DNA of 64,000 nt, from NCBI RefSeq assembly GCF_017744155.1, contig NZ_JAGHQT010000003.1:1-64000 (forward strand). Reading direction: 5' to 3'. The notes beneath the pieces were generated by a model, which was given only the letters and a program-made list of their open reading frames with translations, was not told the origin of the DNA and did no database searches. The DNA is from Endozoicomonas sp. G2_1 (GTDB lineage Bacteria; Pseudomonadota; Gammaproteobacteria; Enterobacterales; Alteromonadaceae). The translations under genes and the position numbers were made by a program. Shown here piece by piece: positions 19,061-37,478 of this stretch. Every line of letters begins with the position of its first letter. Position 1 is the stretch's first letter.

Positions 19061-20230
19061 ATGATTAAAAAAAGTTTATTTAGAAAAATTGTGACAGTAG
19101 CAGAGTACGAGAGAGTACTCGTATTTAAAAATCAAGCCTTAGATAAGGTTCTATCTACAGGTAAGCACAAAGTTTGGGATACTCGCGATGAACTCGACTT
19201 TGTTTATTTTGATATTAACAAACTCTATTTTGCAGAAAAAAATGCAGAGCGTTTATATAAAAATAATGAGCAACTGCGCGAACACATTGGCCATTGGAAA
19301 ATGGCGAGCAACGAAGTGGGTATGCTGTATATCAATGATTTACTGCGAGGGGTTGTTGCGCCAAGCGAGAATTTATACTTGTGGAAAGACGCAGGTGATA
19401 TTCGGGTTGAGCGAGTCTCTATTGATGACAACATCGAACTTGATGAAAAGACCTTGGTTGAAATCAATCGCGCTGGTGCCAATACCGCATCACGGCTAAT
19501 CCGCAGTGAACGCACCGTTGCCATTAAGCCAGTAGCCGATATCAACATTGCCAAAGACCACATTGGTTTACTTTACGTCAATGGGCAATTGTCTAAGCGA
19601 CTAGCGCCGGGTAGCCATGGTTTCTGGCAGTTTAATCACGCGATTGAAGTAAAGTCGTTTGATTGTAGAACGCAAATGCTGGAAATTTCTGGCCAAGAAA
19701 TATTGAGTAAAGACCGCGTTAGTTTGCGAATTAACCTGAGCGCCAGTATTAAAATTCACGATGCAGAGCTTGCTGCGAGTAGTGTCGACAACGCTCAAGA
19801 GTACGTTTATAAAATGCTGCAATTGGCCTTGCGTGAAGCGGTTGGCACTAAGTCGCTTGACGATATTTTGCTCGACAAGCTTTACGTTAACGAAACCGTT
19901 CAAGAGTTAGTGACTGAGCGTTTAACAACTATGGGTATTAGCTTAGTCAGTGTCGGGGTCAAAGACATCATCTTACCGGGTGAAATGAAAGCGATTCTGA
20001 ACCAAGTTGTTGAAGCACAAAAAGCAGCTGAAGCCAACGTGATTAAAAGAAGAGAAGAAACCTCGGCGACTAGAAGTTTACACAACACCGCAAAAGTGAT
20101 GGAGAACAACCCAACACTAATGCGTTTGAAGGAGCTTGAAGCGCTCGAAAAAGTAGCGGGCAAAATTGAGAGCTTAACCGTTTACGGCGGGCTTGAAGGT
20201 TTGATGAATGGCGTGGTCAAAATCGCCTAG
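19061..20230 (+). CDS. SPFH/band-7 (slipin/flotillin-like) domain protein
   Basis: Band-7 core followed by coiled-coil EAQKAAEANVIKRREE; first ORF after tRNA-like array, upstream of rtcB. Confidence 0.6.
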   Translation: MIKKSLFRKIVTVAEYERVLVFKNQALDKVLSTGKHKVWDTRDELDFVYFDINKLYFAEKNAERLYKNNEQLREHIGHWKMASNEVGMLYINDLLRGVVAPSENLYLWKDAGDIRVERVSIDDNIELDEKTLVEINRAGANTASRLIRSERTVAIKPVADINIAKDHIGLLYVNGQLSKRLAPGSHGFWQFNHAIEVKSFDCRTQMLEISGQEILSKDRVSLRINLSASIKIHDAELAASSVDNAQEYVYKMLQLALREAVGTKSLDDILLDKLYVNETVQELVTERLTTMGISLVSVGVKDIILPGEMKAILNQVVEAQKAAEANVIKRREETSATRSLHNTAKVMENNPTLMRLKELEALEKVAGKIESLTVYGGLEGLMNGVVKIA

Positions 20231-20313: not shown

Positions 20314-21543
20314 ATGTGTAATAAACACTATAACTTGATCGAAAATGAAGGCAAGGTGCCAATTAAGGCGTGGACTAAAGGTGTGCCATTTGAGCAACAA
20401 GCGCAAGATCAGCTAAATAACATTGCCAGTATGTCATTGGTGCATTCACATATTGCGGTAATGCCTGATGTTCACTTGGGAAAAGGTGCGACCATTGGCA
20501 GTGTAATTCCGTCGGTTGATGCCGTTATTCCAGCAGCCGTTGGTGTCGATATTGGTTGCGGTATGGTGGCGACGAAAACTACGTTAACGGCAAGCCAATT
20601 ACCGGATAATTTAGCGGGTATTCGTCACGCTTTTGAAGCGGCTGTGCCGCACGGACGCACAGGTGGAAAACGCGGAGCGCGCGATCGCGGCGCTTGGCAT
20701 AATATTCCAGAGGTAGTTGCTGGCGAGTGGAAAAAACTTGAAGCTCGCTTTGAAAGAATTTGTCAGAAACACCCAGCCATCAGCAAGAGTAACCACGTTA
20801 AACACTTGGGCACTATGGGAACAGGTAATCACTTTTTGGAGCTTTGTTTAGACGAAAACGACGCGGTTTGGATTATGCTGCACTCAGGCAGCCGCGGTGT
20901 TGGCAACCGTATTGGTACTTATTTTATTGAGTTAGCCAAAAAAGAAATGCAGCGTCATCAAATTAATTTGCCAGACGTTGATCTTGCTTACCTCGAAGAG
21001 GGCAGTGAGTACTTTGACGACTATGTTGAAGCGGTTGAATGGGCGCAAGATTTTGCGGCAAAAAATCGTGAAATCATGATGTTTAACGCAATCGCAGCGT
21101 TGAGAAAGCAAATACCAATTGAGTTTTCAACGGCAGAATTGGCAGTTAATTGTCACCATAATTATATTTCACGCGAGCGCCACTTTGGCAAAGATTGCTT
21201 TGTGACCCGTAAAGGAGCGGTGCGCGCAGAAAAAGGTGAAATGGGTATTATTCCAGGTAGTATGGGTGCTCGTTCGTTTATTGTTCGAGGCTTGGGAAAC
21301 CCTGATAGCTTTAACAGTTGTAGCCATGGTGCCGGTCGAGTGATGTCGAGAACCAAGGCGAAAAAGGTTTACACTATTGATGATCAAATTGCCGCAACCG
21401 AGGGCGTTGAGTGTCGTAAAGACGCTGCGGTAATCGACGAAATTCCTCATGCTTACAAGGATATTGACCAAGTTATGGCGGCGCAAAAAGACTTGGTTGA
21501 AGTGGTTTATACCTTAAAGCAAATTGTTTGTGTTAAAGGGTAA
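20314..21543 (+). CDS. rtcB: RNA-splicing ligase RtcB (3'-phosphate/5'-OH RNA ligase)
   Basis: 409 aa; conserved RtcB metal-binding Cys/His pattern (VMPDVHLGKG, GCGM, GTGNHF, HSGSRGVGN, HNY, CSHGAGR). Confidence 0.9.
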   Translation: MCNKHYNLIENEGKVPIKAWTKGVPFEQQAQDQLNNIASMSLVHSHIAVMPDVHLGKGATIGSVIPSVDAVIPAAVGVDIGCGMVATKTTLTASQLPDNLAGIRHAFEAAVPHGRTGGKRGARDRGAWHNIPEVVAGEWKKLEARFERICQKHPAISKSNHVKHLGTMGTGNHFLELCLDENDAVWIMLHSGSRGVGNRIGTYFIELAKKEMQRHQINLPDVDLAYLEEGSEYFDDYVEAVEWAQDFAAKNREIMMFNAIAALRKQIPIEFSTAELAVNCHHNYISRERHFGKDCFVTRKGAVRAEKGEMGIIPGSMGARSFIVRGLGNPDSFNSCSHGAGRVMSRTKAKKVYTIDDQIAATEGVECRKDAAVIDEIPHAYKDIDQVMAAQKDLVEVVYTLKQIVCVKG

Positions 21544-21552: not shown

Positions 21553-22593
21553 ATGAAATATATAACCATAGATGGTGCCCAAGGCGAAGGAGGCGGCCAA
21601 GTGCTAAGGACAGCACTGACACTGTCAATTTTAACCAAGCAGCCAATTGAGCTAGTAAATATTCGCGCCAATCGAGCAAAGCCCGGTTTATTGCGCCAGC
21701 ACTATATTTCAGTGATGGCAGCTAAAACAGTGTCAAATGCTGAGGTTGAAGGTGTTGAATTAGGTGCTACTAGCATTCGATTCTCGCCGGGTGAATTAAC
21801 TGGCGGTGATTACCATTTTTCTATTGGTACTGCTGGCAGCACGGTATTGGTTTGCCAAACCATATTACCGGTATTGGCCTTAGCTAATAGCGCTTCCACC
21901 GTTACCTTTGAAGGCGGCACTCACAACGGTATGTCGCCTTCACTTTGCTTTTTACAACACTCATATTTACCGCTGCTTCGCAAAATGGGAGTAGCGTGTC
22001 GAGTATGCATTGAGAAGCTAGGCTTTTATCCCGCTGGTGGTGGCAAATGGCAAATGCTGGTAGAGCCGACCGCTAGTTTACAGCCGATAGATGGTTTAGA
22101 TGCGCGTGCAGCTGACCCAAGTGTTGAACAGCAATGCCAGCTCAAAGCGTTGATAAGTTCTCTGCCCAAGCACATTGGTGACAGAGAAGTAGCAACTGCA
22201 GTAAAAATACTGGCTTGGCAACAAGCACCGCAAGACGTTGAGCTGGTTGAAAGTGCAGGCCCTGGAAACAGTTTTCAGGCGATGGTTTCGACTCACTCTC
22301 ATGCCAGCGTTTTTGAAACGGTTGGCGAACTTGGTGTTTCAGCTGAACGCGTTGCCAAGCGTTGTGCTGGGCGAGTAAAACAGTTTTTGAATGCACAAGC
22401 GACGGTAGAAGAGCACTTAGCCGATCAATTGTTGGTACCTATGGCCTTGGCTGGTTCAGGCAGTTTTACCACGACTAAACCAAGTTTACACACGCTGACC
22501 AATATCGACGTAATTAAACGCTTTTTACCTGTCAGAGTACGCATAGAGCAACAGACTAAACAGCGTTGGCGCATTGATTTAACAACAACTTAA
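21553..22593 (+). CDS. rtcA: RNA 3'-terminal phosphate cyclase RtcA
   Basis: 346 aa; N-terminal DGAQGEGGGQVLRTALTLS motif. Confidence 0.85.
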   Translation: MKYITIDGAQGEGGGQVLRTALTLSILTKQPIELVNIRANRAKPGLLRQHYISVMAAKTVSNAEVEGVELGATSIRFSPGELTGGDYHFSIGTAGSTVLVCQTILPVLALANSASTVTFEGGTHNGMSPSLCFLQHSYLPLLRKMGVACRVCIEKLGFYPAGGGKWQMLVEPTASLQPIDGLDARAADPSVEQQCQLKALISSLPKHIGDREVATAVKILAWQQAPQDVELVESAGPGNSFQAMVSTHSHASVFETVGELGVSAERVAKRCAGRVKQFLNAQATVEEHLADQLLVPMALAGSGSFTTTKPSLHTLTNIDVIKRFLPVRVRIEQQTKQRWRIDLTTT

Positions 22594-22610: not shown

Positions 22611-23414
22611 ATGGTGATGTTAACAGCAGAGCAAGTGATAGCACCTGACGTGTACTCAGAAATAATGCGCCGAATCAAAGCTGCGGAACAAGAGCACAAC
22701 GTAAAGGTGCTTTACGCGGTAGAGTCAGGCAGCCGTGCTTGGGGTTTTGCTAGCCCAAATAGCGATTACGATGTGCGCTTTATTTATGCGCACCCCAAAG
22801 ACTACTATCTAACGATAGACATTGAAGACAAGCGCGATGTAATTGAATACCCAATTGTTGATGAAATCGATATTAATGGTTGGGATATTCGCAAAGCATT
22901 AAAACTGTTTTGGAAATCAAATCCCGCGTTTATTGAGTGGTTACAGTCACCAATTGTTTATCTCGACGATGGCTTTTTCGCGCCAACGGCTCGTGATTTA
23001 ATGCCCAGTGTGGCATCGTCTCACAAAGGTATTTATCACTACTTGCACATGGCGCGCGGTAATTTTCGCGAGTACTTGAAAAAAGATGTGGTGCCGTTGA
23101 AAAAATACTTTTACGTGCTCAGGCCGCTGCTGGCAATAATGTGGCTAGAAAAATATGACAAACCAGCTCCGATAGAGTTTGATGTATTGCGTCAACTGGT
23201 TGCTGACAATGAAGCGTTAGATGAAGCTATTTCTGAATTGGTTGCTCGCAAAAAAGTGAGTTTAGAAAAGGAATATGCGCCAGCGGTGCCGATAATCAAT
23301 CAATTTATTGAATCTGAGCTTAGCCGACATCAAGAAAACCCTCCTAGTGCCGGAGACAGAGATGCCGATTTTGAGTTACTAAATCAGTTGTTTAAAAGGG
23401 TTTTGCTGGATTAG
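22611..23414 (+). CDS. Pol-beta-superfamily nucleotidyltransferase, RNA-ligase-associated (RlaP-like)
   Basis: GS-x-RAWGFASPNSDYDVRF NTase motif (GS…DxD); immediately follows rtcA. Confidence 0.55.
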   Translation: MVMLTAEQVIAPDVYSEIMRRIKAAEQEHNVKVLYAVESGSRAWGFASPNSDYDVRFIYAHPKDYYLTIDIEDKRDVIEYPIVDEIDINGWDIRKALKLFWKSNPAFIEWLQSPIVYLDDGFFAPTARDLMPSVASSHKGIYHYLHMARGNFREYLKKDVVPLKKYFYVLRPLLAIMWLEKYDKPAPIEFDVLRQLVADNEALDEAISELVARKKVSLEKEYAPAVPIINQFIESELSRHQENPPSAGDRDADFELLNQLFKRVLLD

Positions 23415-23556
23415 TTTTGATAGCATAAACACATAGTTGAAGGGCAATAACAAATCAACAAACTTGATCTGCGCTAGCCCTTCAACTATAGTCGAGTTAG
23501 TCACAAATCTGTGGCTATTACTTTTAACCATGACAGCCGGCTAGACCGGAAAGTTA

Positions 23557-24000
23557 TTGCGTAAATACTTATTAAATACCCTCCTTGATTTAGAATTTGT
23601 CGAACAAAATCCAACATATCACCCAGAAGGTAATGCGCTGTTTCACAGTTTGCAGGTGTTCCAACTTAGTCTTAAATTCTCCAATGATCCTGAAATATGG
23701 GCTGCAGCATTATTTCATGATATTGGAAAAGCGATCGATGGACCCACTCACGCAGAAATAGGAGCTGAGCTACTTAGTGGCATCTTTAACGAGAATATAT
23801 GTTGGCTAATTCGTCATCATTTGGACTTATTAACCCACCCAGCAAAAACAAAACGAGCTCTAAGAAATAGTTCCAGACTGAAGCAGTTGATTGTATTGCG
23901 TCATCTAGATTTAAATGGTCGCGATCCATATGGTGTGGTTTGTACGCCAGAATTTGCAGTCGACTACATATTACAGCATTTTTCTTCTATTAAAGCTTAA
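23557..24000 (+). CDS. Stand-alone HD phosphohydrolase resembling the HD domain of class II CCA-adding enzymes
   Basis: YHPEGN…H…FHDIGK…HH motifs. Confidence 0.55.
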   Translation: MRKYLLNTLLDLEFVEQNPTYHPEGNALFHSLQVFQLSLKFSNDPEIWAAALFHDIGKAIDGPTHAEIGAELLSGIFNENICWLIRHHLDLLTHPAKTKRALRNSSRLKQLIVLRHLDLNGRDPYGVVCTPEFAVDYILQHFSSIKA

Positions 24001-24027
24001 AACCCGACCTTAAATGGTCCATTTATC

Positions 24028-24639
24028 ATGAACAAACAACACATTAAAACACTAATGATTCAAGAGTGTGCGAAGCTTATGTACTTTGAAGGCGTTAGCC
24101 AGTATTTCGACGCTAAAAGGATAGCGGCTAAGCGCATTTGCAAAAGCAAAAATCAGTTTTTCCCTACTAATGGCGAAATTGTCAATGCGGTACATGAATT
24201 AAGTATGCAGGATCGGAGCTTTGATAGAGCCCATACACTTTTTAGAATGCGAATAAAAGCATTAGAAATTATGGAGCTATTAGACTGTTTTTCTCCCAGA
24301 TTAATTGGGTCTGTTAGTACAGGTAAAATAAAGCGAACTAGCGATATCGACTTGCACGTATTTTGTGATGACATTGAGTTGTTAACTACATTTTTAAACG
24401 ATGAGAAAATTTCTTTTGAGCAAAATGAAGTGCTTATCATGAAGAATAACAAGCCTAGAGTTTATCAACATATTTATATTGTAAACGAGTTCAATATAGA
24501 GCTATCTGTATATCCGTTTAATGAATTGAGGGTTACAAGTAGAAGTAGTACCGATGGTAAACCTATAGTGAGAATGTCAAAAGCTAAACTTGAAAGATTG
24601 ATTGAACAGGAACATTGGCGCGAAATAGTACAAGCTTAG
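24028..24639 (+). CDS. Minimal nucleotidyltransferase (MNT-type pol-beta fold)
   Basis: GSVSTGKIKRTSDIDLHVF (GS…DxD) motif. Confidence 0.55.
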   Translation: MNKQHIKTLMIQECAKLMYFEGVSQYFDAKRIAAKRICKSKNQFFPTNGEIVNAVHELSMQDRSFDRAHTLFRMRIKALEIMELLDCFSPRLIGSVSTGKIKRTSDIDLHVFCDDIELLTTFLNDEKISFEQNEVLIMKNNKPRVYQHIYIVNEFNIELSVYPFNELRVTSRSSTDGKPIVRMSKAKLERLIEQEHWREIVQA

Positions 24640-24656: not shown

Positions 24657-24696
24657 TAAGAATAGTTACTTCGTTAACTGAAGTAACTATTCTCTA
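24657..24696. terminator. Bidirectional hairpin between convergent operons
   Basis: AGAATAGTTACTTC-gttaac-TGAAGTAACTATTCT 15-bp stem. Confidence 0.65.
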
Positions 24697-24712: not shown

Positions 24713-27316
24713 TTATAGCTGACTCAAAATCGTTGGATCTTTAATTTTATTATCTTCTGCGAGTAAAAACGCTTTCGAAAGTACAATCGATAGACCATTG
24801 TCACCTTCAAATGGTAAGAATACATTATTGAGGTTTTTATCTTTGCTCCGACTCGGGACAATACACAGGTAGCGATCATTAGGCATGATTAAAATGTTTC
24901 CGCTGCCAATGTGAATTTTATAAGTGTGTTTTGTACCTTTAACGATCAAAAACTTATTATCAATGTGCGCAACATCTCGCAATTTAAGGCGTGGTAATAG
25001 TTTTTCTAACACGTCTTTCCTAGTTTTTGCCACTTCACTTAAATCACCAAAAGAGTAGGAGTGCCAATAGTCACGGTATGCTGCTCTTCCGTCAGGCCCT
25101 CCATCTTGCCATTGAGGGTCGTTCCCCACACTGGCGACACCTACAAATAGATCAGCGTCTCTCATGATTTCGGAAAACAATAGAGGTGGGACATCAGCGA
25201 GTTCAACGGCTTCACCGGATTGATCACAAAACCTGAGTTGGTCAGTAGCAACATAATACCAAATACCGACATCAGTATATTGGCCGTCTTCATCTATCAA
25301 TTCGTTTATCCAGAATTGGGCGGTGAGCTGGTGTGCCGGTAGATACTTTTGTGCTAGTTCGCCGTCAGCTCCATTATCAAAGGCACCTTGTAGTGTATAT
25401 TTCCAACCTCTAGTTGCAGCTAGAGAGTTGAATTGGTGCTGTTTGATAATATGTGCAGCCATTCTATTGGAATAAATACGAGTATTAATTTCGGCATCCG
25501 TAAGTAAATAAATTTCACGAAAAGCTTGTTTAATCGGCTGTTTAATTCCTAGATAGTCCAGGCGTTCTCGCCATGCTAAAACCTCTTCTGCTTCAGAAAA
25601 TAGCGGATGCCACAGAGTAACTTTAGCATTTGGATCAATATTAACGGCGTTGCCTGATACGTCTTGCCATTGTTCGTTAATGTATAACAGAGGTTTTTCA
25701 TCAAATGACCAAATTAATTTTTGCGCGATAACACTAACTAAGCCGTGCTTTAAATAGTATTGTTCAAAATCTGTAATGGTCCATTCCATAACATCGGTAT
25801 ATATTCGGTCAATGCGATCTTTTTGTGTAGATAGGTTTTGCTTTATTTGTTTGACAGTGGCTCTTGCTTTTTTGAGATTGTCATTAAGTGCTTTATCATT
25901 TTTGACGAAAGCAGGCACTGACTTTTGTTGTACACCATCAGGCTTTAACCAAATTTGCTCTACTTGATTAACGCCTGATACCTTTATTTGTAAACTAAAA
26001 TCATTGAACGGTATGCTAATTTTTCCCTCTATCAGGTTGAAATCAGGGACAGATATTTCCTCGACCTGAGCTGGCTTTATACCAAGTTTTTCTGCCTGTT
26101 GATCTATGTATGTTTGGATCAGTTTTTGGGTACTATTTTGTTTTACTCTGAGCTTTAACCTAGATAAATGACCAATTCCTCCAAGCCCTTTTGATTGAGC
26201 TAAGGTATAAATTCCCGCATTGCCGACTGCTAAAGCAACAGGACCGTGATCAGGTATTTTCTCGAAGCACTTTTCCGTCAGTTTAGCGATATTTTGCACG
26301 CTTTCTTGATCATGAAAGCGACTCATCGACCAAATTAGCCCTTTTAACAACTGATAACAGCCTGACTCTATATATTCATAGTTGTGGTAAACATATTCTT
26401 GGCCATTATAGTTACTGGTTCTTTGCGTAATAATGACCTCTAACTCAACCAACTGCTTGAATAGCTGATTGACTAACTTTTTATATGGTTTAATGCCAAT
26501 TTGGTCGATTAGTTGGCTCGAGGTGGTTAAGAATTTTTTGCTCGGTTTGCCAGCTTTAGCAGTCGACAAGTGACGCAGTAAGCTATTCCAATTGTTATCG
26601 TTTGTCAGGTTACTTGTCTCGAAAGCTTGTCTTGCTATTTGACCAAAGCGACCACTGCTAAACTTGTAAGAAGGAACTTGTTGTTCGCCATTAGCGTTGG
26701 CACTAGTAAGAGCATTTTGGAGTTTTTGAATGGCTTTACCGATATCTGGCCCCCAATAGTAGTTGCCTTCATTGCCGTTTATATGAGGCTTAATTAGTTT
26801 ATTAGCCAAAAGCTCTTCAATATCTTCAGCAATGTGCGTTTGTGGGCCATGTCGTTTTACGTGTTTTTCAATTTGAGTGGCGAAATAACCAAAAGGACCA
26901 TCGTTCAATGCTAGTTTATTTTTGCGGCCTTGGTGATAAAGCAAAGAAAACAAATCGCTAAAACTGTAATCGATTGGAAAATCTATTCTCGTTTTAAGTA
27001 AAGCTTCGATTAATCTTGAGTAAATATAGTTTGCTTGCTTATTGGGGTTGTTGTAGTCACGTGTATCAAGATCATAGCTGTTAATTTTGTTCATCAAAGC
27101 TTCAAGCGCCGCAATTTTTTGTAATGCAGGTAATTTTTTTAGCTGCTGATATTCTTCACAGTCTTTAAAAGGCAAATGATGATAACTATAGAGGTACTCG
27201 GTCGAGTCTATGACTTGTGTTTGTATCGCGTTGAAGTAGTGATCAAATTCAGAAGTTTGTGGCTGTGCACCCGACGTTTTAGCGTTTCTAAGCCTTTGTA
27301 AAATTTTTTCTAGCAT
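24713..27316 (-). CDS. Large (867 aa) hypothetical protein, possibly DUF4132-like
   Basis: No catalytic motifs recognised by eye; co-oriented with upstream 131-aa ORF. Confidence 0.3.
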   Translation of the reverse strand: MLEKILQRLRNAKTSGAQPQTSEFDHYFNAIQTQVIDSTEYLYSYHHLPFKDCEEYQQLKKLPALQKIAALEALMNKINSYDLDTRDYNNPNKQANYIYSRLIEALLKTRIDFPIDYSFSDLFSLLYHQGRKNKLALNDGPFGYFATQIEKHVKRHGPQTHIAEDIEELLANKLIKPHINGNEGNYYWGPDIGKAIQKLQNALTSANANGEQQVPSYKFSSGRFGQIARQAFETSNLTNDNNWNSLLRHLSTAKAGKPSKKFLTTSSQLIDQIGIKPYKKLVNQLFKQLVELEVIITQRTSNYNGQEYVYHNYEYIESGCYQLLKGLIWSMSRFHDQESVQNIAKLTEKCFEKIPDHGPVALAVGNAGIYTLAQSKGLGGIGHLSRLKLRVKQNSTQKLIQTYIDQQAEKLGIKPAQVEEISVPDFNLIEGKISIPFNDFSLQIKVSGVNQVEQIWLKPDGVQQKSVPAFVKNDKALNDNLKKARATVKQIKQNLSTQKDRIDRIYTDVMEWTITDFEQYYLKHGLVSVIAQKLIWSFDEKPLLYINEQWQDVSGNAVNIDPNAKVTLWHPLFSEAEEVLAWRERLDYLGIKQPIKQAFREIYLLTDAEINTRIYSNRMAAHIIKQHQFNSLAATRGWKYTLQGAFDNGADGELAQKYLPAHQLTAQFWINELIDEDGQYTDVGIWYYVATDQLRFCDQSGEAVELADVPPLLFSEIMRDADLFVGVASVGNDPQWQDGGPDGRAAYRDYWHSYSFGDLSEVAKTRKDVLEKLLPRLKLRDVAHIDNKFLIVKGTKHTYKIHIGSGNILIMPNDRYLCIVPSRSKDKNLNNVFLPFEGDNGLSIVLSKAFLLAEDNKIKDPTILSQL

Positions 27317-27326
27317 ATCGGTCTTT

Positions 27327-27722
27327 TTAGCCTCCCACTAGTTGGGTTAGTTTGATAAAACTGATAGAGGTATTCGCGGTTATCTTGATGGTTTGGTCTA
27401 AGCTTTCTGCTTGCATGTCGTCTATGAGAATGAAAAAGCCGTTACTTTCAAATGCGTTAAATGCTATTTCAATTTGTTTTTCAGGATCTACTTGATGTTT
27501 TTTTTTCGGTGAGCCGTTGAGAGTGGTTTCTAGAGTTTTCGGTTTGACCAGAGAATGTCTACTAGATTGCTGCTTTTCATTGTATTGGACGACTTCTTGG
27601 TATACCCGCTCTACAATTAAGTCTTTAACAGTGATTTGGATGCGATCGAACGACAATTCTAATTCTTGATAAACTTGGCCAAAGCCATTTTCATCCTTAA
27701 TTTGTATTTTTGTGATCTGCAA
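27327..27722 (-). CDS. Hypothetical 131-aa protein, upstream partner of the 867-aa protein
   Basis: 10-bp spacing to downstream gene suggests operon. Confidence 0.35.
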   Translation of the reverse strand: MQITKIQIKDENGFGQVYQELELSFDRIQITVKDLIVERVYQEVVQYNEKQQSSRHSLVKPKTLETTLNGSPKKKHQVDPEKQIEIAFNAFESNGFFILIDDMQAESLDQTIKITANTSISFIKLTQLVGG

Positions 27723-28665: not shown

Positions 28666-29928
28666 TTACTCAAACGAACCATAGCGATAAAGCTCTTTGC
28701 CTTTTTCGCCAATGATCAACAAGCGATGCGCTTCGCTAAACCAAGGCCATTCCAGCTTATTCATCTGGTCAGTAATAACTTCGTCACTAACGGCAAACTT
28801 GCGATGTCGGTTGTTTGTTCGCAAGGCTTTTTCACTTTGTTGAAAAACAACCATAGTGATTAGCGCGTTGTAGCTTGTGCCTAAATCGCAAATGATTTTT
28901 CTAAAGTCTTTGCGAATATTGGTGGCGTCCCAAACTACATCACGCTTTTGTGCTAGTGCTTGCTTAAGCCTTGTTTTAGCTTGCTGCAATACTTGTCCTC
29001 GATTTTTTTGGCTCAAGCGTTTGCCATTAATTTCACGCCTTATTTCATCGAGCGAAATGACGTCAAAATTACTTAGGTTTTGCTCAATCCAAGTCGATTT
29101 TCCACTGCCACTTATGCCACACATAACGTATAAGTGACTGTATTGTTGGCACGCTTGGTAATGTTTAGCTATTGCTTCTTCAGCTGTGCTAATGTCTCCA
29201 CTGGCAAGTTGAGTGGTTGCATAGCTATTTAAAAACACTTGCTCAGCGGTGTTTTTCTTTACCTGGATTTGTGCCAAGTGAGCTAATGCTGGAGTAGCCA
29301 TTTGCCAGAGCTGATACTCTTCAGCATATAGCCGAAACTGTTCTAAAAAGTCGAGTTGTACTGATAAATCAGGACAAATTCGTCCCTTCATATCTGCAAT
29401 TTCGAGCCAGTAAAGCAGGGCTAAATCAACGTTTAACGACAACTTAAAGTAGTCTTTAAAGTCGCTATTTCTCAATACCAGTAATTTAGGCATTTGATGA
29501 AAACCAACCAAGCCCATAATAGTTAAAACACTTTGTTGATCAAGCGGTAAAGAAATTAAGCGAGTCGCTAAATAGCTAGTGCCAATCTGCTCGTGTTTGG
29601 GAGCAACTAGACGTATTTTTCCCGCAATTTCCTTGCGCCGAGTTGTTAACGGCTTTGCAATATCGTGGAGCAATGCCGCTAGTATCAAGCTTTGGCGAGC
29701 AACTCCCCGAATGTGTTTGGCCTCTGACTCTAGCTGGGTGTAAAGTGCTTGCAAGACCATCTCTGTGTGAATAGCAACATTACCTTCTGCATGCCAATCC
29801 GAGTCTTGTTCGGTATTCTCGAACTGGTGCAGCAAAGGGAAATATTGCCCTAAGTAGTCAACACATTCTGCAAAGTTGGGCGTATGGTTCTCTGCCAAGC
29901 TTTGTAGCCAAGTAGTTAGTTTGTTCAT
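28666..29928 (-). CDS. HD-Pnk bifunctional RNA end-healing enzyme (N-terminal HD 2',3'-phosphoesterase plus C-terminal P-loop 5'-OH polynucleotide kinase)
   Basis: N-terminal H…HD (LHDIAKP); C-terminal Walker A GISGSGKST and kinase-like DEIRRE. Confidence 0.65.
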   Translation of the reverse strand: MNKLTTWLQSLAENHTPNFAECVDYLGQYFPLLHQFENTEQDSDWHAEGNVAIHTEMVLQALYTQLESEAKHIRGVARQSLILAALLHDIAKPLTTRRKEIAGKIRLVAPKHEQIGTSYLATRLISLPLDQQSVLTIMGLVGFHQMPKLLVLRNSDFKDYFKLSLNVDLALLYWLEIADMKGRICPDLSVQLDFLEQFRLYAEEYQLWQMATPALAHLAQIQVKKNTAEQVFLNSYATTQLASGDISTAEEAIAKHYQACQQYSHLYVMCGISGSGKSTWIEQNLSNFDVISLDEIRREINGKRLSQKNRGQVLQQAKTRLKQALAQKRDVVWDATNIRKDFRKIICDLGTSYNALITMVVFQQSEKALRTNNRHRKFAVSDEVITDQMNKLEWPWFSEAHRLLIIGEKGKELYRYGSFE

Positions 29929-29937
29929 GGTAACCTC

Positions 29938-30567
29938 CTAGTTATCAGCGCCTTTTAAACCGTTGGCAATAACCTCAGCGTGCATCCAGTGTTTGTTGGT
30001 GCTGACGTGGTTGGGACGAACCCATTTGGCCACCGATTGAGCAAATTGATCAAAATGAAAACTGTCGGCAAGTCTAACCACGTAACCTTCTTGCTTGCTT
30101 TGATCTAGCGTGAGTTCGCGTATCGTTTTTTCACACCACAAACCAGTATAAAGTTCTTTTGGTGGTTCTAGCCCCAACTTAGCAAACAGCGTTTTACTGG
30201 CTTGCCAATCCAAACACATGTTGTTTTCATTCCATGCTGAAAAAGCGACAAAATAGCTCGGTAGATTGTCATAGGCGATAGAATGCTGTGCATAAAGGTT
30301 CTCACCGCAAATGCGCCAGCCTGCTGGAATGTTATAGCCAATACGAGCTTGCAGTGCTTTAACCCAAGTGCGAGATGGGTGAAAGCGACTGTCGATGGAT
30401 CGCGCGTGAATAAAGTCGGAATAAAGCGTTGTATTTTCGCCATCCATTTTTTCAGTAACGACAACCTTTTTGCCTTCAAAAGGGCTGGCATTGCCTTGGT
30501 GTATGTCGTCTGACGTAGCTCCTGGTGACCAAGGCAAATGTGGGGTACGCGGGTATTTAACTCTCAT
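29938..30567 (-). CDS. Rnl2-like ATP-dependent RNA ligase (adenylyltransferase domain); start likely M at 30567 (track ORF opens at 30681)
   Basis: N-terminus KYPRTPHL resembles T4 Rnl2 KYSSLENH; motif I KMDGEN (KxDGxN type); GGAG RBS before 30567. Confidence 0.65.
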   Translation of the reverse strand: MRVKYPRTPHLPWSPGATSDDIHQGNASPFEGKKVVVTEKMDGENTTLYSDFIHARSIDSRFHPSRTWVKALQARIGYNIPAGWRICGENLYAQHSIAYDNLPSYFVAFSAWNENNMCLDWQASKTLFAKLGLEPPKELYTGLWCEKTIRELTLDQSKQEGYVVRLADSFHFDQFAQSVAKWVRPNHVSTNKHWMHAEVIANGLKGADN

Positions 30568-30758
30568 TTTTGTAACTCCAATTGTAACGACTATTTTTAC
30601 AGCGGGTATGTTCTGCAATGCAGATAATTCGGCGCTGTAAATTTGCGGTGCAACAACACGCTTTGCCAGCGCTGCTGACAAAGTTAGTGTGTGCGGTATT
30701 AATCGCGGAATTACATTGTTCTATCCTCACTTTAGTTATGCCTATCGCAACTACCTAG

Positions 30759-31106
30759 TTACTGTGAGCATGTATTAATCTTCAAACTACCACTGACTGA
30801 TTGAGTAATAAGCTCAACTAGTTCTGGATCCATGTACTGGTACTCGTCGGGAATATCGAGTACCTGAATATTTGTATGATGTAACAGTCGAGTAAATTGC
30901 GCCTTTAATCGACATTTGTGTTTATTTTCCATCACAAAAATAATATCTGCCCATTGTATGTCGCTGGCATTTACCGTTCGTTTTGCTTTTGGGCTAGTAC
31001 CTGCTGAGCGTACGGCAAGAGCAGGGTAGTTTTTCCAGACCTGCTCTGCTGTTGGGCTGCGCCATTTATTGCGACTACAAATAAATAAAACGCGTTGTTT
31101 ACTCAT
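30759..31106 (-). CDS. Low-molecular-weight phosphatase-like protein (LMW-PTP/ArsC fold)
   Basis: P-loop CSRNKWRS (Cx5R-S) and downstream DIPD(EY) general-acid-like motif. Confidence 0.5.
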   Translation of the reverse strand: MSKQRVLFICSRNKWRSPTAEQVWKNYPALAVRSAGTSPKAKRTVNASDIQWADIIFVMENKHKCRLKAQFTRLLHHTNIQVLDIPDEYQYMDPELVELITQSVSGSLKINTCSQ

Positions 31107-31686
31107 TACCAGTATTTTTCTCCATGTCTAAGACTATGCTATGGCAAGGTAGGTTACAGCCATCGTCAAATTCAGCGGCAGCATGAACACCTGTTTCAGC
31201 GATTTGTTGTGCCGTTGCTCCAGACTCATAAAGAGCATGCATAGCACCCAATGCAAAACGTCTGCCTGAGCCGAGCGCCCAAAACTGCTCATACTGATGT
31301 ACTTCGCGATAACTACCAAATTGAAAAATGCCAGAGGAATTAATGATCAAGCCGTCGAGTTGGTTTGACTCAACCGGCTGGTCACTGTCTTCATTGGTTT
31401 CAATAAAATATTCATTTTTCAACTTGTCTTGAATCGCCAATAAGGTTTCGAATATTTGCCACCTCGTTTTTAGGTTAAATAGTTTCGGCTCCGTTTCTAT
31501 TAAGTGCTCGAGGATTTGACTGGTTGCCGACCAGCCAGTCATGCCTATAACACTGTCTTGTACCGGAAAAAGTTTTTTGCGATCGTTAACGTATTTTGCG
31601 TGTACTTTTAACGAGCCAAAATTTAATTGCGTGTCGGCAGAGATACATACTTTGCCATCTTTTATTGCTGCTGTAATAACAGTCAT
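31099..31686 (-). CDS. HslV-like Ntn-hydrolase (proteasome beta-type) without HslU
   Basis: N-terminal Thr after Met (MTVITAAIKDGKVCISADTQ vs HslV TTIVSVRRNGHVVIAGDGQ); GSG motif; 8-bp overlap with downstream phosphatase gene. Confidence 0.5.
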   Translation of the reverse strand: MTVITAAIKDGKVCISADTQLNFGSLKVHAKYVNDRKKLFPVQDSVIGMTGWSATSQILEHLIETEPKLFNLKTRWQIFETLLAIQDKLKNEYFIETNEDSDQPVESNQLDGLIINSSGIFQFGSYREVHQYEQFWALGSGRRFALGAMHALYESGATAQQIAETGVHAAAEFDDGCNLPCHSIVLDMEKNTGNE

Positions 31687-31846
31687 TATATTCTCCTTGA
31701 GTAGCTGTATTATTGTGGTTAGTAGCTACTCTTTTGTTGATTTCTAATGTAGTTTTTCATTTTGCTCTCCACTAGAATTGAATCTAGAAGAGAGCACCTT
31801 TTAGTTGTGAAATTAACATTGTTACTCTCCTTAAATTGGTTATGTA

Positions 31847-32473
31847 CTATTGACTTAACACGAACTTTTCACCTTTAAATATTTTTACTGGATTACCTCG
31901 TTGCAATTGCCAATGTTGTTGCCAGCGCGCTTGTTCTTGTTGACTCATTTTTTGCTGCTGAGCCATTTGCAGTTTTTGAAACAGCAACGCTTTTGCTAAA
32001 CGCTTGTTGGCGTGTTGGCTGCGTTCACTTTCAACGCGCACTGAAACTCCTGAACTAGTGTGAGTGGCTCGCACAGCCGAGTCTGTTGTGTTGACATGTT
32101 GCCCGCCAGCACCAGATGATCGACAAGTTTGGTAAACAATCTCGCGATCAAATGTCATTTCGTCTACTTGGTATACTTGGCCGCTAAAAAACCAGTTTTT
32201 GCGTTTGTGTTGTGGGCGGTATTTACTTTGGCAAACCCAAAGCATTGCTCCTTGCCACGTTTGTGCAAACGCTAAAGCTGTTGCTTTTTGATTGCTTTCT
32301 ATCTGCAGTAAGGCCGACTTAAAACCTAACTTGTTTTCACCCTGACTCGCGTCAATTACCGTGCAATTTAGATCGCTCGTTTTACATTGCTTTTCAATGG
32401 CTTTAACGGCGAGTGCAACCGCTTGGCAGCACTCAACTGGCCCTTGGCCGGCGGAAAATTGAAGTAAAATCAT
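31847..32473 (-). CDS. prfH: Peptide chain release factor homolog PrfH
   Basis: GGQ motif [17 protein letters not shown]; N-terminus [16 protein letters not shown] like E. coli PrfH; 4-bp overlap with upstream rtcB2. Confidence 0.8.
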
Positions 32474-33657
32474 TTGCTACAACTCCCGTTAGTTTTAAAT
32501 GTGAGTACCGGGCGCAACCTCGCGATAATCTCGATTAAACCTGCCGCTGCCATATCTAAAATAATACTTTCACATTTTTTGTAGGCTTGCGGCGCCTCGT
32601 CGTATAACAATTCTTTGTTGCCACAAACGACTCGGCTACCCAATGCTGTTCGGTATAAGTCTTCGCGTTTGTACTTGTGACTTAATCGGCTTTGGCAGTC
32701 GCCGCGCTTCCACTTTCGGCCCGCACCATGAGCAAGAGAACACAAGTTGTGGTTTAGCTCCTGCTGCTGGTTTAATAGCGGTTTCACCAAATAGCTGTAA
32801 TCACCGCGTGAACCCGGAATCACAACATAACCAGCGTCGCTAGGCGTCGCCCCTTTGCGGTGAAGCCAGCCTTTAACACCATCGATTGTTTTGGGTGAAA
32901 CGAGGTTGTGGTTAACATCAAGTACGCAATCACCTTGTGCTTTTATCGCTGCTAAAAAGCGCTTGGCTATAAGTGAACGGTTAAGCTCAGCCCAGCGCAC
33001 CGCATGGTTGTGCTCAGCAATATACTGATTAAATGGCTCACTATTTGTCGCCAAACCATCATGGTTAAATTCACTAATGTGCTTAACCAAAATCGACTGC
33101 CCTAAACCGCGAGATCCCGAGTGCACTAAAAGCTGCAACTGCTTCTTGTTTATGCCCAGTTGATCTAATTGGCTTTGGTCGTAAACTTGGTCAATCGCCT
33201 GAAACTCTGCAAAGTGGTTACCACCACCTATAGTGCCAAGCGCATGATCATAATTGCTGTTAGTAATATTTTTCTCGCGTTTGCCTTGAGCAATGTCATC
33301 AGCCCAGTTGTCGTCAAGTGGCTGTTCAATCGTTTTGAATTGTTTAGCCATTTTGTCTAGATTGACTTTGGCAACTTTGCTCGATGTTTGCCACAACGCC
33401 ATGCCACAACCAATGTCATTACCGACTAAGGCCGGATAAATTTTACTGCGCGTGAAAAATGCCGCACCAATCGGATAACCTCGGCCCGGATGCAAATCAG
33501 GCATACCCGCGACGCGTTCCATACCGGTTAATTCGGCTGTTTTAATTAATTGTTGTATTGCTAGCCCTTCAATCCACGTATTTTTTGAGGCAATAAGGCT
33601 AACTTTGTCAGTAATTTGTTGGACGGATTTGTCCATAACACCAATTCCTTTGTTCAT
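32470..33657 (-). CDS. rtcB2: RtcB-family RNA ligase paralog (RtcB2) paired with PrfH
   Basis: 395 aa with RtcB metal-site motifs (HPGRGYP, GCGM, GGGNHF, HSGSRG, HNH, AHGAGR). Confidence 0.8.
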
Positions 33658-34039
33658 TTGAAAATTTGGTTTTTTAAAACGAATACGGTTTGGCAGATCT
33701 TTTTAGCGTTGAACAAAAACCATAGGCAAACAAACAGGCTCTAGCGACGAAGTGCTAAAGTGAGTTGCTTTAGTTCAGCTTAAAAAGAATTACAGAATGT
33801 TGGCGTAGCTTGTTGCTAGCTAAAAAGATCTGCAAAGGGTAATAATGTATTTTTCATGTTTTTTACTCCTCTACAGTTAGTTGAAAAATGATAGTTGCTC
33901 ACTAAATAAGCGAGCGCATAATAATCAGTTTAATTTGTGAAAGCAAACTTAAAATTAATAAATTGCTAAAATTTCCTATATTTCGACTCATTTTCACCGC
34001 AAAAAAAGTGAACCATATTGGCATTCATTGCGGTGTCTG

Positions 34040-34681
34040 TTACATACACAGATTATTCTGAATTTCTTTTGAGACCGAAAACACTCGCTCTTTCGGCGTC
34101 AGTAATTTTGTTAAATCACCAGCTTCGACAAATTTTCTTTGCTCGGCAACAAAGGGTGAAATATCTTCAATGCGAAAAATGCCATCACCTTTAAACGGCG
34201 CTAAATAGTTGTTTCTCAAGCCTAGCTGAATTGCCTTGCGGTCGAGCTTTTCACCATAGGGGTTATGATCGGGATCCCACTGAAGGCGGACATCAGTAGT
34301 GGCTATTTTTTCTTTCCACTCTTGTTGTGCTAAGCCAAATACGTTAGTTGACGGAAAAGCATTTTGTAGTAAATATTCGAAATATTCAGGTTTGAGAAAT
34401 ATGGCTAATGTGGTCTCTTGACCTTCTTTGGTGCCCCAGCCTGATCGATACATCATCCAGAGAAAGTTGGGTTTAATCCAGCTCATTCTCGAATAACTGA
34501 AGTCACCGCCAAAGTACTGTTGTTTTGCTGCAAAGTTGCCAATACTAGGGCGATAAGCTTGGTAAACTATTACGTAATCTTGGCAACTTTGAGCCATGAT
34601 ATGTTTGCCACTATCCGGCCAAAATGCTTGCTGTTGGTAGTATGGCTCAACCTCAAGCCACGACTCTTGATCAATTTTCAA
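34040..34681 (-). CDS. DUF4291-like protein
   Basis: Family recalled from memory; co-oriented downstream of kptA and NADAR. Confidence 0.35.
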   Translation of the reverse strand: MKIDQESWLEVEPYYQQQAFWPDSGKHIMAQSCQDYVIVYQAYRPSIGNFAAKQQYFGGDFSYSRMSWIKPNFLWMMYRSGWGTKEGQETTLAIFLKPEYFEYLLQNAFPSTNVFGLAQQEWKEKIATTDVRLQWDPDHNPYGEKLDRKAIQLGLRNNYLAPFKGDGIFRIEDISPFVAEQRKFVEAGDLTKLLTPKERVFSVSKEIQNNLCM

Positions 34682-34713
34682 TGTATTATTCCTTTGTTGT
34701 GTTTCTGTTTTGG

Positions 34714-35280
34714 TTAGCTAATGTGCCAGTGAATAAATTCAGTTGGTACATTGTCAACGAGCCAAACATTGTTTGCTGAGCGATAAAAGATAAAACCTTG
34801 CTCATGCATTTTTTTGCTATCGATTTCGAGCACTTTAAGTTTTCCATATCGACTGCCAACCGACGCCGCCACCGTTTTTGATTCGGTAAGGTGAACATGG
34901 TGTCTGTTTCCTTTACTGAGTCCTTGTTCCTGAATACTTGCGCAGAAGCGTTCAGCGGTTCCGTGTAACAGTTTCTCAGGTGGTATAAGTGGTGTTAATG
35001 CCAGATCAACATCGATAGAGTGACCTTGGTTCGCTCTGATTTTTGTTCTGTTTGAGTTTATTGCAAAACGCTGTTTGTCATTCGTTTCAGCGACTAAATC
35101 AACAAGTTCAGCTGTCAGTGGATGTTCAGTAGTTTTATCGACAAGCTCATCGATTGAGGCCCAGCCACAGCTGTCTAGCTTTAAACCAATAGCATCGGGT
35201 TTGTGTCGTAAAACAAAGCTCAAATATTTGGATATTGCGGTGAGCTGCTTTTCTGTGATGCCTACTATTGGGTTAGTCAT
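34714..35280 (-). CDS. kptA: RNA 2'-phosphotransferase KptA/Tpt1
   Basis: LSFVLRHKPDAIGLKLDSCGWASIDELV … HGT … RHHVHL motifs. Confidence 0.8.
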   Translation of the reverse strand: MTNPIVGITEKQLTAISKYLSFVLRHKPDAIGLKLDSCGWASIDELVDKTTEHPLTAELVDLVAETNDKQRFAINSNRTKIRANQGHSIDVDLALTPLIPPEKLLHGTAERFCASIQEQGLSKGNRHHVHLTESKTVAASVGSRYGKLKVLEIDSKKMHEQGFIFYRSANNVWLVDNVPTEFIHWHIS

Positions 35281-35836
35281 TGATCAGTCGCTCTCTTACT
35301 TCCATTAAGGCATAGCCCAACAAATTCAAACCACGCCAGTGTTCAGGTTGCTCTATTTTCGGATTGTCTTGGGCCATGCCTATTCCCCATATCGAATCAA
35401 CAGGGCTCGCCTCAACGATTACTCTGTCATTGGTGTTAATAAGAAAATTGGCAAGCTCATTATGAGCCCTGAATTTAGCCAAATTGGCGTTTATCACAAT
35501 ATCAAACCTATGTTGTTGCCAAACTTGGTCATTGAAGTTGGCGACAGTTCTACCTATGGCTTTTGCTTCGCCGGGCGATTGGGCGGCAAGCACTTTGTTC
35601 GCTGATTTTTTATCATCGAATAACATGGCTTTAGCAAACATCATATAGTGCTCTGCAGTTTGAAAGTGGCAGTTATCGCTGGTAAAAGGAGCGTGATACC
35701 ACTGACTAAAACAGCTTTTGGTGACAACAGGTGCACTACTAGTCATTTTGCTTTGGTGCCCCCAGAAAAAAAGGTATTTAACCGCAACACCATTTGCAAG
35801 TGCTTGCAGCAATTCTTGATTATTTCTTATATTCAT
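35273..35836 (-). CDS. NADAR (YbiA-like, DUF1768) domain protein
   Basis: FFWGH…FSQWY…AEHYMMFAKA…WGIG…LG.ALMEVR pattern; 8-bp overlap with kptA. Confidence 0.7.
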   Translation of the reverse strand: MNIRNNQELLQALANGVAVKYLFFWGHQSKMTSSAPVVTKSCFSQWYHAPFTSDNCHFQTAEHYMMFAKAMLFDDKKSANKVLAAQSPGEAKAIGRTVANFNDQVWQQHRFDIVINANLAKFRAHNELANFLINTNDRVIVEASPVDSIWGIGMAQDNPKIEQPEHWRGLNLLGYALMEVRERLIND

Positions 35837-35872
35837 TTTGTTTTATCTCTCAATCCTTGCGCGCTAATCGCT

Positions 35873-37468: not shown

Positions 37469-37478
37469 TTTGCTCTCC

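Follow-up and report, generated by a model that had tools for sequence, protein, structure and literature searches.

The rtcA gene of Endozoicomonas sp. G2_1 is followed by three co-directional open reading frames (ORFs), which raises the question of whether they extend the rtc RNA-repair operon or constitute something else. A sequence-only reading of the 64,000-nucleotide contig stretch analyzed here (the window) had called them a nucleotidyltransferase (NTase), an HD-domain protein, and a second NTase, all appended to rtcBA. These are real, conserved genes, and the domain calls were right; the idea of an appendage holds for the first gene (rlaP) but not for the other two (HD147 and NT203). 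We consider it about an even chance (probability, about 0.5) that these 2 kb contain two separate things, i.e., rlaP, which ends the rtc operon, and an autonomous split NTase-HD module for RNA 3'-end healing and tailing.

The rtc operon lies next to the divergent rtcR (16815..18413, minus strand), which encodes its sigma-54 activator (NCBIfam RNA_repair_RtcR, 767.8 bits against a cutoff of 650; Pfam RtcR and Sigma54_activat). The sole match in the window to the pattern TGGCAC-N5-TTGA (18565..18579, plus strand) marks a putative sigma-54-type promoter-like site. The operon leader contains three tandem tRNA-like elements of the band-7-associated type (18668..18882, plus strand; ARAGORN, n = 3), with Rfam tRNA scores of 50.3 and 66 bits and a weak match to YrlA; the same elements occur upstream of the Band-7 gene in loci L039, L091, and L093. 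The plus-strand genes that follow encode an SPFH/Band-7 protein (19061..20230; PF01145, E = 3.9e-28), the RNA ligase RtcB (20314..21543; PF01139, E = 1.8e-126), the RNA 3'-phosphate cyclase RtcA (21553..22593; NCBIfam NF003246, 402 bits against 352), and the RNA-ligase-associated Pol-beta NTase RlaP (ORF1; 22611..23414; 267 amino acids). Under RtcR/sigma-54 control, the operon would be read in the order b7a-tRNA-like RNAs, band7, rtcB, rtcA, and rlaP.

RlaP matches PF10127 over profile positions 3 to 248 of 249 (E = 4.4e-87; 292.3 bits against a cutoff of 23), and its translation contains the Pol-beta catalytic motifs G40-S41 and D52-Y-D54; a PDB sequence search with the copy searched gave zero matches. 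The gene starts 18 nt after rtcA, with rtcB in the same operon, and this placement is repeated in the relatives L091 and L093. Thus, rlaP is the final gene of the RtcR/sigma-54-controlled operon and a genuine rtc member. Already known as an accessory of rtc operons, RlaP was recently shown to extend RNA 3'-OH ends by one or two nucleotides before ligation, and the P. fluorescens and P. aeruginosa proteins are characterized enzymes (PMC12776372). RlaP requires a 3'-OH, and its product is incompatible with RtcB, which requires a 3'-phosphate end (PMC12776372). NMP addition, demonstrated for the Pseudomonas enzymes only, is a putative activity of the RlaP encoded here. The locus had also been presented as a more elaborate rtc operon than E. 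coli rtcBA; two reports already describe this larger architecture, with RlaP, Band-7, and tRNA-like RNAs (PMC12776372; bioRxiv 10.1101/312249, citing Burroughs & Aravind 2016).

The remaining two genes are separated from rlaP by a 142-nt gap that holds a promoter-like site and a leader. The putative sigma-70-type site, TTGATC-17-TATAGT (23464..23492, plus strand), was found by consensus scan and conservation, and its -35, spacer, and -10 are conserved in place in stand-alone and rtc-linked relatives alike. It is followed on the same strand by leader hairpin 1 (23498..23517), which is kept among relatives with differing stem sequences, and by a conserved motif, GACAGCCRG-N5-7-CYGG (23532..23549), with exactly 7 nt separating its end from the TTG start codon of HD147. 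This motif has one match in the window (0.01 expected). Of 93 loci, 30 contain it, each as a single copy; in the 21 distinct sequences analyzed, it immediately precedes the HD gene at an unvarying distance of 7 nt. The CCGG/CCGG stem of the motif is changed to CCAG/CTGG in Microbulbifer. The leader has no Rfam match and folds weakly better than shuffled sequences (z, -0.1 to -2.2); the case for the predicted leader hairpin is made by conservation and one compensatory change rather than by folding energy. The TTG start is conserved, and a Shine-Dalgarno sequence is absent. Two other readings of the leader were dropped: a Pho box, since CTGTCAT (the strand opposite GACAG) has no second half-site, and a leaderless transcript, since the 7-nt spacer has no conserved -10. 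Between the convergent genes at the other end of the pair, a perfect 13-bp inverted repeat read from the sequence, GAATAGTTACTTC-gttaact-GAAGTAACTATTC (24660..24692, assigned to neither strand), is likely a bidirectional terminator.

Of 80 genome loci, 76 have the HD147 gene directly upstream of the NT203 gene, and a contig edge interrupts most of the remainder. Clustering of the neighborhoods of these loci did not reveal a third conserved gene (clusters 2 to 5 consist of spurious, overlapping ORFs from high-GC genomes). In approximately 90% of the loci, including those of relatives at 73 to 82% identity, the pair occurs by itself. Given its separate, conserved promoter-like site and leader and its mostly solitary occurrence, the pair is not an extension of rtcBA. 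By these comparisons, the two genes make up an autonomous module, with a predicted sigma-70-type promoter and a conserved leader of its own, and NT203 is the predicted obligate partner of HD147.

The same two parts are found in one chain of 370 amino acids in Planctomycetota. In the NTase-HD protein P0257 of Rosistilla, residues 1 to 205 match NT203 (34% identity; E = 7e-36) and residues 227 to 362 match HD147 (40% identity; E = 1e-23). With P0257 as the query, >7,500 proteins were retrieved at E <= 1e-20, a total to which split-form proteins would contribute, and the top matches listed were Planctomycetota fusions of approximately 370 amino acids. The existence of single-chain fusions establishes that the NTase and HD proteins are coupled as one functional unit, in the manner of E. 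coli-type CCA enzymes, which supports the sequence-only reading on this point. Judging from these alignments, HD147 and NT203 are the split form of a widespread bifunctional NTase-HD enzyme that is a single chain in Planctomycetota. Automated annotation mislabels members of this family as "Multifunctional CCA protein" or just as "HD domain-containing protein."

HD147 (ORF2; 23557..24000, plus strand; 147 amino acids) is a small HD-domain protein (PF01966, E = 5.8e-13) that combines six ligands for a dinuclear metal center with a YxxE loop. Its sequence is that of the NCBI entry "HD domain-containing protein [Endozoicomonas sp. G2_1]" (100% identity), and it has 504 homologs at E <= 1e-3. Its motif residues are Y21-H-P-E-G25, followed by H30, H54-D55, H65, H88, and D118, the latter six being invariant or nearly so among 104 family sequences. 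In whole-fold comparisons, HD147 groups with the PhnZ/TmpB/MIOX oxygenases, not with CCA-type HD domains, and the family profile matches PhnZ (E = 7e-11) and TmpB (E = 7.6e-5). The six ligands align with PhnZ H34, H58-D59, H80, H104, and D161; Y21-H-P-E24 aligns with PhnZ Y24-I-G-E27 and R115 with R158. Across the N-terminal 72 columns only, hhalign matched HD147 to the HD domain of a CCA-like protein (probability, 93.8%; E = 1.7e-7), and the HD domain of HD-Pnk was matched with a probability of 93.1%; a W/H-H-P/A-E motif resembling the YxxE loop is present in both. The earlier assignment of the YHPEG region to CCA-like HD domains is supported by these matches; the grouping of the whole fold with the oxygenases is in part the outcome by which that reading itself was to be refuted. 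Model scores on HD147 lay far below the cutoffs for the multifunctional CCA protein (PRK10885, 22.1 bits against 451) and for Phn-HD (TIGR03276, 23.5 bits against 214.6), and matches to GlnD HD regions were weak.

NT203 (ORF3; 24028..24639, plus strand; 203 amino acids) was recognized from conserved motifs and its predicted structure. Given the family-invariant residues G94-S95, D106-x-D108, and E158 and a confident model with an NTase-fold core (pLDDT, 92.5), NT203 is a Pol-beta-type NTase, with a basic N-terminal four-helix domain. A reading as an RSH/alarmone synthetase was dropped because GS...DxD is classical Pol-beta rather than RSH. NT203 has 457 homologs at E <= 1e-3, and its family comprises 1,150 clusters at 50% identity (E <= 1e-10). 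All of its Pfam matches (i.e., DUF4269, Polbeta, and NTP_transf_2) are subthreshold, with DUF4269 scoring 24.6 bits against 28.9; this model is matched by all 98 family members at E <= 0.01 (best, 1.3e-7). NT203 is thus related to but distinct from DUF4269. Profile and structure comparisons detected neither a PolyA_pol head (PF01743) nor an RNA-binding neck/body (PF12627) in NT203; among the profiles proposed earlier for these ORFs, PF10127 and HD were matched, NTP_transf_2 only below threshold, and PolyA_pol not. A metagenome scan with NT203 retrieved only four loci, each of them a small fragment or nearly a duplicate of L082.

The proposed association with RNA repair is supported, as the pair recurs in RNA-repair islands of unrelated taxa. 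It is located near RNA-repair genes in L087, L088, L089, L091, L093, and L039, where the order is zf-rtcB-?-rtcA-band7-HD-NT-CCA-like-RlaP-like-RlaP-RtcB2-PrfH; L039, L091, and L093 carry it in rtc operons. Elsewhere, the pair is near an RNA ligase and HD-Pnk (L008), RtcB (L009 and L016), two RlaP genes (L017), or a CCA-like gene (L049). The window also contains a complete HD-Pnk/RNA ligase operon, 4 kb from the pair; such an operon adjoins the pair in L008, L087, and L091 to L093. RNA-repair linkage was counted in 6 of 80 species-level loci, against a chance expectation of 1 to 2% that is a rough estimate with no computed null; approximately 90% of the split-form loci have no RNA-repair neighbor. 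None of the three Planctomycetota loci examined for the fused form had such a neighbor, and their contexts were uninformative. RNase Z was rejected as a recurrent neighbor, being confined to one lineage (L001, L084, and L085); the MBL gene of L095 is PhnP-like. Since canonical CCA-like genes adjoin the pair in L039 and L093, the pair is not a replacement for the CCA enzyme.

With moderate confidence, these comparisons suggest that HD147 and NT203 are the two subunits of an enzyme for RNA 3'-end healing and tailing, by which damaged RNA ends are probably trimmed and extended. We infer its substrates, its chemistry, and its cooperation with the Rtc proteins as follows. The dinuclear metal center of HD147 (H30, H54, D55, H65, H88, and D118) would strip 2',3'-cyclic, 3'-, or 2'-phosphates from RNA ends; NT203 would grip the RNA via its basic N-terminal helical domain and, using G94-S95, D106, D108, and E158, add one or more nucleotides to the freed 3'-OH. 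At this locus, the module could also provide the 3'-OH ends required by RlaP. A general activity of this kind would explain why the module has been captured repeatedly in RNA-repair islands.

The sequence-only reading had instead joined RlaP, the HD protein, and the second NTase into an integrated rtcBA extension, a split CCA-adding/repair enzyme that would restore tRNA CCA after removal of 2',3'-cyclic phosphates. The co-directional arrangement after rtcA, the retention of the pair in three rtc operons, the YHPEG region, and the NTase-plus-HD architecture are all compatible with this model, but the conserved promoter-like site and leader in the 142-nt gap, which are present in stand-alone loci too, the solitary occurrence of the pair in most genomes, even in its relatives at 73 to 82% identity, and the missing head, neck, and body domains of NT203 make it unlikely. 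CCA restoration itself is unsupported, since two loci encode CCA-like enzymes next to the pair and nothing points to CCA specificity. A reversible switch of the GlnD type, in which NT203 would put NMP on a protein or small molecule and HD147 would take it off, with RNA not being a substrate, fits the strict co-inheritance, the fused order of NTase then HD (as in GlnD), and the weak GlnD matches. The many loci without an RNA-repair context and the wide occurrence of the fused form in Pirellulales-type Planctomycetota would likewise suggest a housekeeping regulatory role. However, no conserved neighbor could be the target, the pair has been captured recurrently in RNA-repair islands, and the homology of HD147 to RNA-end phosphoesterase HD domains exceeds that to GlnD, which leaves such a switch improbable.

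The fold of HD147 also allows a PhnZ/TmpB/MIOX-type mixed-valent diiron oxygenase, cleaving C-P or C-C bonds, with NT203 activating or modifying the same substrate, which would be a small molecule or, in a more exotic version, a moiety at an RNA end. The profile matches, the aligned Y21/E24, R115, and D118, and the similarity to solved PhnZ/TmpB-type members agree with this, and a review gives the H..HD..H..H..D motif with a substrate-gating YxxE loop before the first His as descriptors of HD-domain oxygenases (PMC8177086). The same six ligands, however, serve dinuclear HD hydrolases (PMC8177086), and the aromatic-x-x-E motif is shared with the HD domains of CCA-like proteins and of HD-Pnk, the latter an established 2',3'-phosphoesterase (PMC6097658). 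Together with the low Phn-HD score and the lack of a PhnY/TmpA-like 2OG hydroxylase, transporter, or other phosphonate gene conserved nearby, this renders an oxygenase quite doubtful. We are equally doubtful of a composite in which the family, including the fused planctomycete form, is a new RNA-end-processing one that couples an NTase to a PhnZ-like O2-dependent diiron oxygenase, its synthesis being gated by the previously undescribed 5'-leader hairpin. A toxin-antitoxin or antiphage defense pair, with the NTase as an MNT-like antitoxin or a MenT-like toxin, is very improbable. NT203's sequence matches in the PDB are limited to minimal NTases and one MNT antitoxin (E = 0.18 to 0.74), and PADLOC returned a weak PDC-S09 match (E = 4e-4) and otherwise nothing meaningful. 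Against these hints, the earlier label of MNT did not hold, as NT203 matched neither the MntA model nor any other NCBIfam model and has no HEPN partner, its partner being the HD protein (76 of 80 loci); tblastn searches of plasmids and phages with NT203 were negative, and the fused form, unlike a defense gene, is widespread across a whole Planctomycetota lineage.

RlaP and large rtc operons were both known and add little here; the useful result is that HD147 and NT203 define a large, unstudied family of two-component or fused NTase-HD enzymes. The conserved leader motif is a candidate translational control element. If HD147 were an oxygenase, HD-domain oxygenase chemistry would gain a new partner and substrate class. 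If the healing and tailing reading is true, the module would be a second, independently evolved NTase-plus-HD solution besides the CCA enzyme. Ribotoxin cuts leave 2',3'-cyclic phosphate ends. On RNA cut in this way, the module would then generate the 3'-OH on which RlaP depends, a step left unaddressed in the RlaP study (PMC12776372).

In comparison with known systems, RlaP resembles its Pseudomonas counterparts as a full-length, high-scoring family member in an RtcR-controlled operon beside rtcA and rtcB; the operons differ in gene order, with rlaP located between rtcB and rtcA in Pseudomonas but downstream of both here (rtcB-rtcA-rlaP). NT203 shares its GS...DxD core, of similar size, with the minimal NTases of MNT-HEPN type VII toxin-antitoxin systems and differs from MNT, beyond the missing HEPN partner and MntA match, in having an additional, conserved N-terminal helical domain of 85 residues and the motif RSSTDGKPI at its C terminus. 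Compared with PhnZ/TmpB-type oxygenases, which have PhnY/TmpA partner genes and a phosphonate context, HD147 is 30 to 110 residues shorter than the matched chains (180 to 258 residues) and has K58 at the position of PhnZ H62. HD-Pnk, an end-healing enzyme of Runella slithyformis, combines an HD 2',3'-phosphoesterase with a 5'-OH kinase; the N-terminal half of HD147 is homologous to its HD domain, which in HD147 is coupled to an NTase instead of a kinase domain. The E. coli-type CCA-adding/repair enzyme consists of a class II NTase and a C-terminal HD domain that is a phosphoesterase. Unlike that enzyme, the pair has an NTase with no PolyA_pol head and no neck, body, or tail domains and a separate 147-amino-acid HD protein encoded upstream of the NTase gene, and it shares operons with CCA-like genes. 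Nevertheless, the two have in common an NTase and HD domain acting as one unit, fused forms in the order NTase then HD, and the HD N-terminal motif G-V-x-Q-x-P-x-(Y/W/H)-H-P-E.

Directly 3' of rtcA, the region at 22611-24639 contains three ORFs in the same direction, as the sequence-only reading had proposed; the ORF coordinates, Pfam matches, and the motifs and structural model of the third product confirm this arrangement. ORF1 (22611-23414, plus strand; 267 aa) is assigned unambiguously to RlaP by its sequence (PF10127 at full-length coverage, E = 4.4e-87; motifs G40-S41 and D52-x-D54), and its start lies 18 nt past rtcA; the relatives L091 and L093 retain rlaP at this place in the operon. 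[quoted passage not shown] What the finding says on RlaP was thus known before. ORF2 (HD147; 23557-24000, plus strand; 147 aa, TTG start) carries an HD domain (PF01966, E = 5.8e-13) with the motif Y21-H-P-E-G25, and its sequence agrees at 100% identity with that of an NCBI protein from 'Endozoicomonas sp. G2_1'. ORF3 (NT203; 24028-24639, plus strand; 203 aa) has Pfam matches that are all subthreshold (i.e., DUF4269 at 24.6 bits against a threshold of 28.9, Polbeta, and NTP_transf_2).

The surrounding genes include rtcR (16815-18413, minus strand; NCBIfam RtcR, 768 bits), a sigma-54-type site upstream of the rtc genes (18565-18579), three tandem tRNA-like elements (18668-18882), and then an SPFH/Band-7 gene, rtcB, and rtcA. 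The 'anticodon' of one tRNA-like element is 2 nt long, and a second element has an unusual anticodon loop; such elements always lie 5' of the Band-7 gene (three copies in L091, two in L093, and one in L039, a distant locus). They correspond to the 'band 7-associated tRNA', which a passage of bioRxiv 10.1101/312249 credits as a prediction to Burroughs & Aravind 2016. Downstream of the HD-NTase pair, a second RNA-repair operon (28666-38327, minus strand) has the gene order PRPP-synthetase-like, NAMPT, NADAR, Tpt1/KptA, DUF4291, RtcB2, PrfH, proteasome-like (195 aa), LMWPc-like (115 aa, truncated), RNA ligase (PF09414), and HD-Pnk. Both the proteasome-like and the LMWPc-like gene recur at this place, flanked by PrfH and the ligase, in L088, L089, L091, and L093. 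With rtc genes upstream and this operon downstream, the HD-NTase finding falls within an RNA-repair island of ~21 kb, which fits the modular pattern of such islands reportedly described by Burroughs and Aravind in 2016. Two reading frames converge on the NTase gene (24713-27722, minus strand), one for a DUF4132/DUF7737 protein of 867 aa and one, of 131 aa, without annotation; a DUF7737 gene fragment also adjoins the pair in L090.

Fused homologs indicate that HD147 and NT203 make up a single enzyme in two halves. The NT203 profile, run in a full HMMER scan (E <= 1e-10; clusters at 50% identity), yielded 1,150 clusters with many members of 360-500 aa, and several long matches possess a C-terminal HD domain. 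Both window proteins match the 370-aa protein P0257 of Rosistilla carotiformis in an end-to-end alignment, NT203 over residues 1-205 of P0257 (34% identity, E = 7e-36) and HD147 over its residues 227-362, KYHPEGDALYHSLQVF included (40% identity, E = 1e-23). Used as a query, P0257 matched >7,500 proteins at E <= 1e-20, and the top matches listed are Planctomycetota proteins of ~370 aa, some with the automatic annotation 'Multifunctional CCA protein'. In a second fusion class (P0277, P0284, and P0296), the same NTase is joined to a different, CCA/PAP-type HD domain. Four Planctomycetota fusions (P0257, P0417, P0456, and P0464) are publicly labelled 'Multifunctional CCA protein' and lack a PolyA_pol head domain; this label on fused NTase-HD proteins is likely a systematic misannotation.

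The HD gene starts 142 nt after rlaP, and this gap contains a sigma-70-type promoter (TTGATC-17-TATAGT; 23464-23492, plus strand), whose -35, spacer, and -10 are kept in stand-alone and rtc-linked relatives alike. Next in order are a hairpin whose sequence varies and an invariant motif, GACAGCCRG-N5-7-CYGG (23532-23549, plus strand), which ends exactly 7 nt 5' of a start codon conserved as TTG or GTG; a Shine-Dalgarno sequence is absent. The motif occurs in 30 of 93 loci, once per locus, lies just 5' of the HD gene in the 21 distinct sequences analysed, is found once in the window (0.01 expected), and has no match in Rfam; in Microbulbifer, a single compensatory change turns the CCGG/CCGG stem into CCAG/CTGG. 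The leader (23464-23556) is a candidate translational control element or, possibly, a palindromic operator. The gammaproteobacterial motif is absent from the Myxococcota copies (L022-L080), which have another conserved element, GGTGGGTGT(G/A)(A/G)C-N7-9-(T/A)(G/T)GGGT(G/A)GA(G/T), ~60-100 nt 5' of the HD start, resembling a direct repeat.

A scan of 185,579 species genomes for NT203 relatives gave 540 stretches, mainly from Gammaproteobacteria and Myxococcota. Among 80 loci fetched, 76 have an HD147 homolog immediately 5' of NT203 on the same strand, and most of the remainder are cut by a contig end; no other gene family was found conserved in these neighbourhoods. In four relatives of 73-82% identity (L001, L081, L082, and L084), the pair occurs by itself and the neighbourhoods are unrelated. 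Its own promoter and leader, these stand-alone loci, and the conservation of the pair argue that it is an autonomous transcription unit rather than an extension of the sigma-54 rtc operon, from which transcription may still read through.

A link to RNA repair is visible in the close relatives L091 and L093, where the pair ends the rtc operon and faces an HD-Pnk/ligase/PrfH/RtcB2 operon. In L093, rtcA and rlaP are separated by a CCA-like gene, and the distant L039 (45% identity) has the order zf-rtcB-?-rtcA-[tRNA-like]-band7-HD-NT-CCA-like-RlaP-like-RlaP-RtcB2-PrfH. RtcB, RlaP, HD-Pnk/RNA ligase, or CCA-like genes occur <=10 kb from the pair in 6 of the 80 species-level loci (L008, L009, L016, L017, L039, and L049), suggesting several-fold enrichment over a chance expectation of 1-2%, a rough estimate rather than a computed null. 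Three fused-form loci examined showed no RNA-repair context. Two genes stand between rlaP and the pair in L091 (83% identity; 7236-8880): an ORF of 337 aa that matches nothing in Pfam or NCBIfam, and one for a SpoU-type methyltransferase, which may protect RNA ends by methylation. An RNase Z gene (TIGR02651, E = 6.5e-74, 248.7 bits, under the 292.95 cut-off) lies divergently and immediately 5' of the stand-alone pair in L001 (8368-9339), L084 (6854-7825), and L085 (306-1277), an adjacency limited to one Alteromonadaceae lineage and an anecdotal link to tRNA 3'-end processing.

The HD147 signals diverge between phosphoesterase and oxygenase. Its N-terminal half (GVEQxPxYHPEGDALFHSLQV ... HDVGK ... 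H) is homologous to the HD domain of a CCA-like enzyme (hhalign 93.8%, E = 1.7e-7), and Yakunin and colleagues reportedly found in 2004 that the HD domain of the E. coli CCA enzyme acts both as a 2',3'-cyclic phosphodiesterase and as a phosphatase. Homology of the same half extends to the HD domain of the HD-Pnk encoded in the window (93.1%, E = 3.1e-7); in HD-Pnk, this domain acts as a 2',3'-phosphoesterase (PMC6097658). The best PDB matches of the family profile are PhnZ (E = 7e-11) and TmpB, and HD147 combines the six ligands H..HD..H..H..D with a YxxE loop that aligns to Y24/E27 of PhnZ, both HD-oxygenase descriptors according to a review (PMC8177086). A PhnZ-like oxygenase working with the NTase is rather improbable. 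To our knowledge, no structure of an E. coli-type CCA HD or HD-Pnk HD has been solved, and fold ranking is therefore no arbiter of hydrolase versus oxygenase.

NT203 has the invariant set G94-S95 ... D106-x-D108 ... E158, and its model (pLDDT 92.5) places an NTase-fold core behind a basic (pI 9.5), 85-residue helical N-terminal domain. The proposal that this second NTase is an MNT is not upheld, as it has no MntA match in NCBIfam and no HEPN partner in the neighbourhoods of the loci fetched; no copies were found on plasmids or phages, and defence models gave no meaningful match. A toxin-antitoxin or defence pair is thus very improbable. The interpretation first proposed is upheld in part. An integrated CCA-restoration toolkit appended to rtcBA, its central idea, is unlikely: the fusions bear out an NTase/HD couple resembling CCA enzyme logic, but the pair is separated from the rtc operon by its promoter and stand-alone loci, and NT203 has no PolyA_pol domain in Pfam. 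A GlnD-like reversible nucleotidylation switch, which shares with the fused form and the E. coli CCA enzyme the order NTase then HD, is equally doubtful.

We give a probability of about 0.5 to the reading that the pair is a housekeeping-type enzyme for RNA 3'-end healing and tailing, in which HD147 would strip cyclic or monoester phosphates from RNA termini, leaving a 3'-OH for NT203 to extend by one or more nucleotides. Ribotoxin cleavage generates 2',3'-cyclic phosphate ends. Because RlaP requires 3'-OH ends (PMC12776372), activity on such cuts would be useful in repair islands. The elaborate rtc operon noted earlier is present in the window, but RlaP and such operons are already known, whereas the HD-NTase module is an undescribed family, one that resembles CCA enzymes in its NTase-plus-HD logic but lies outside the CCA enzyme family.
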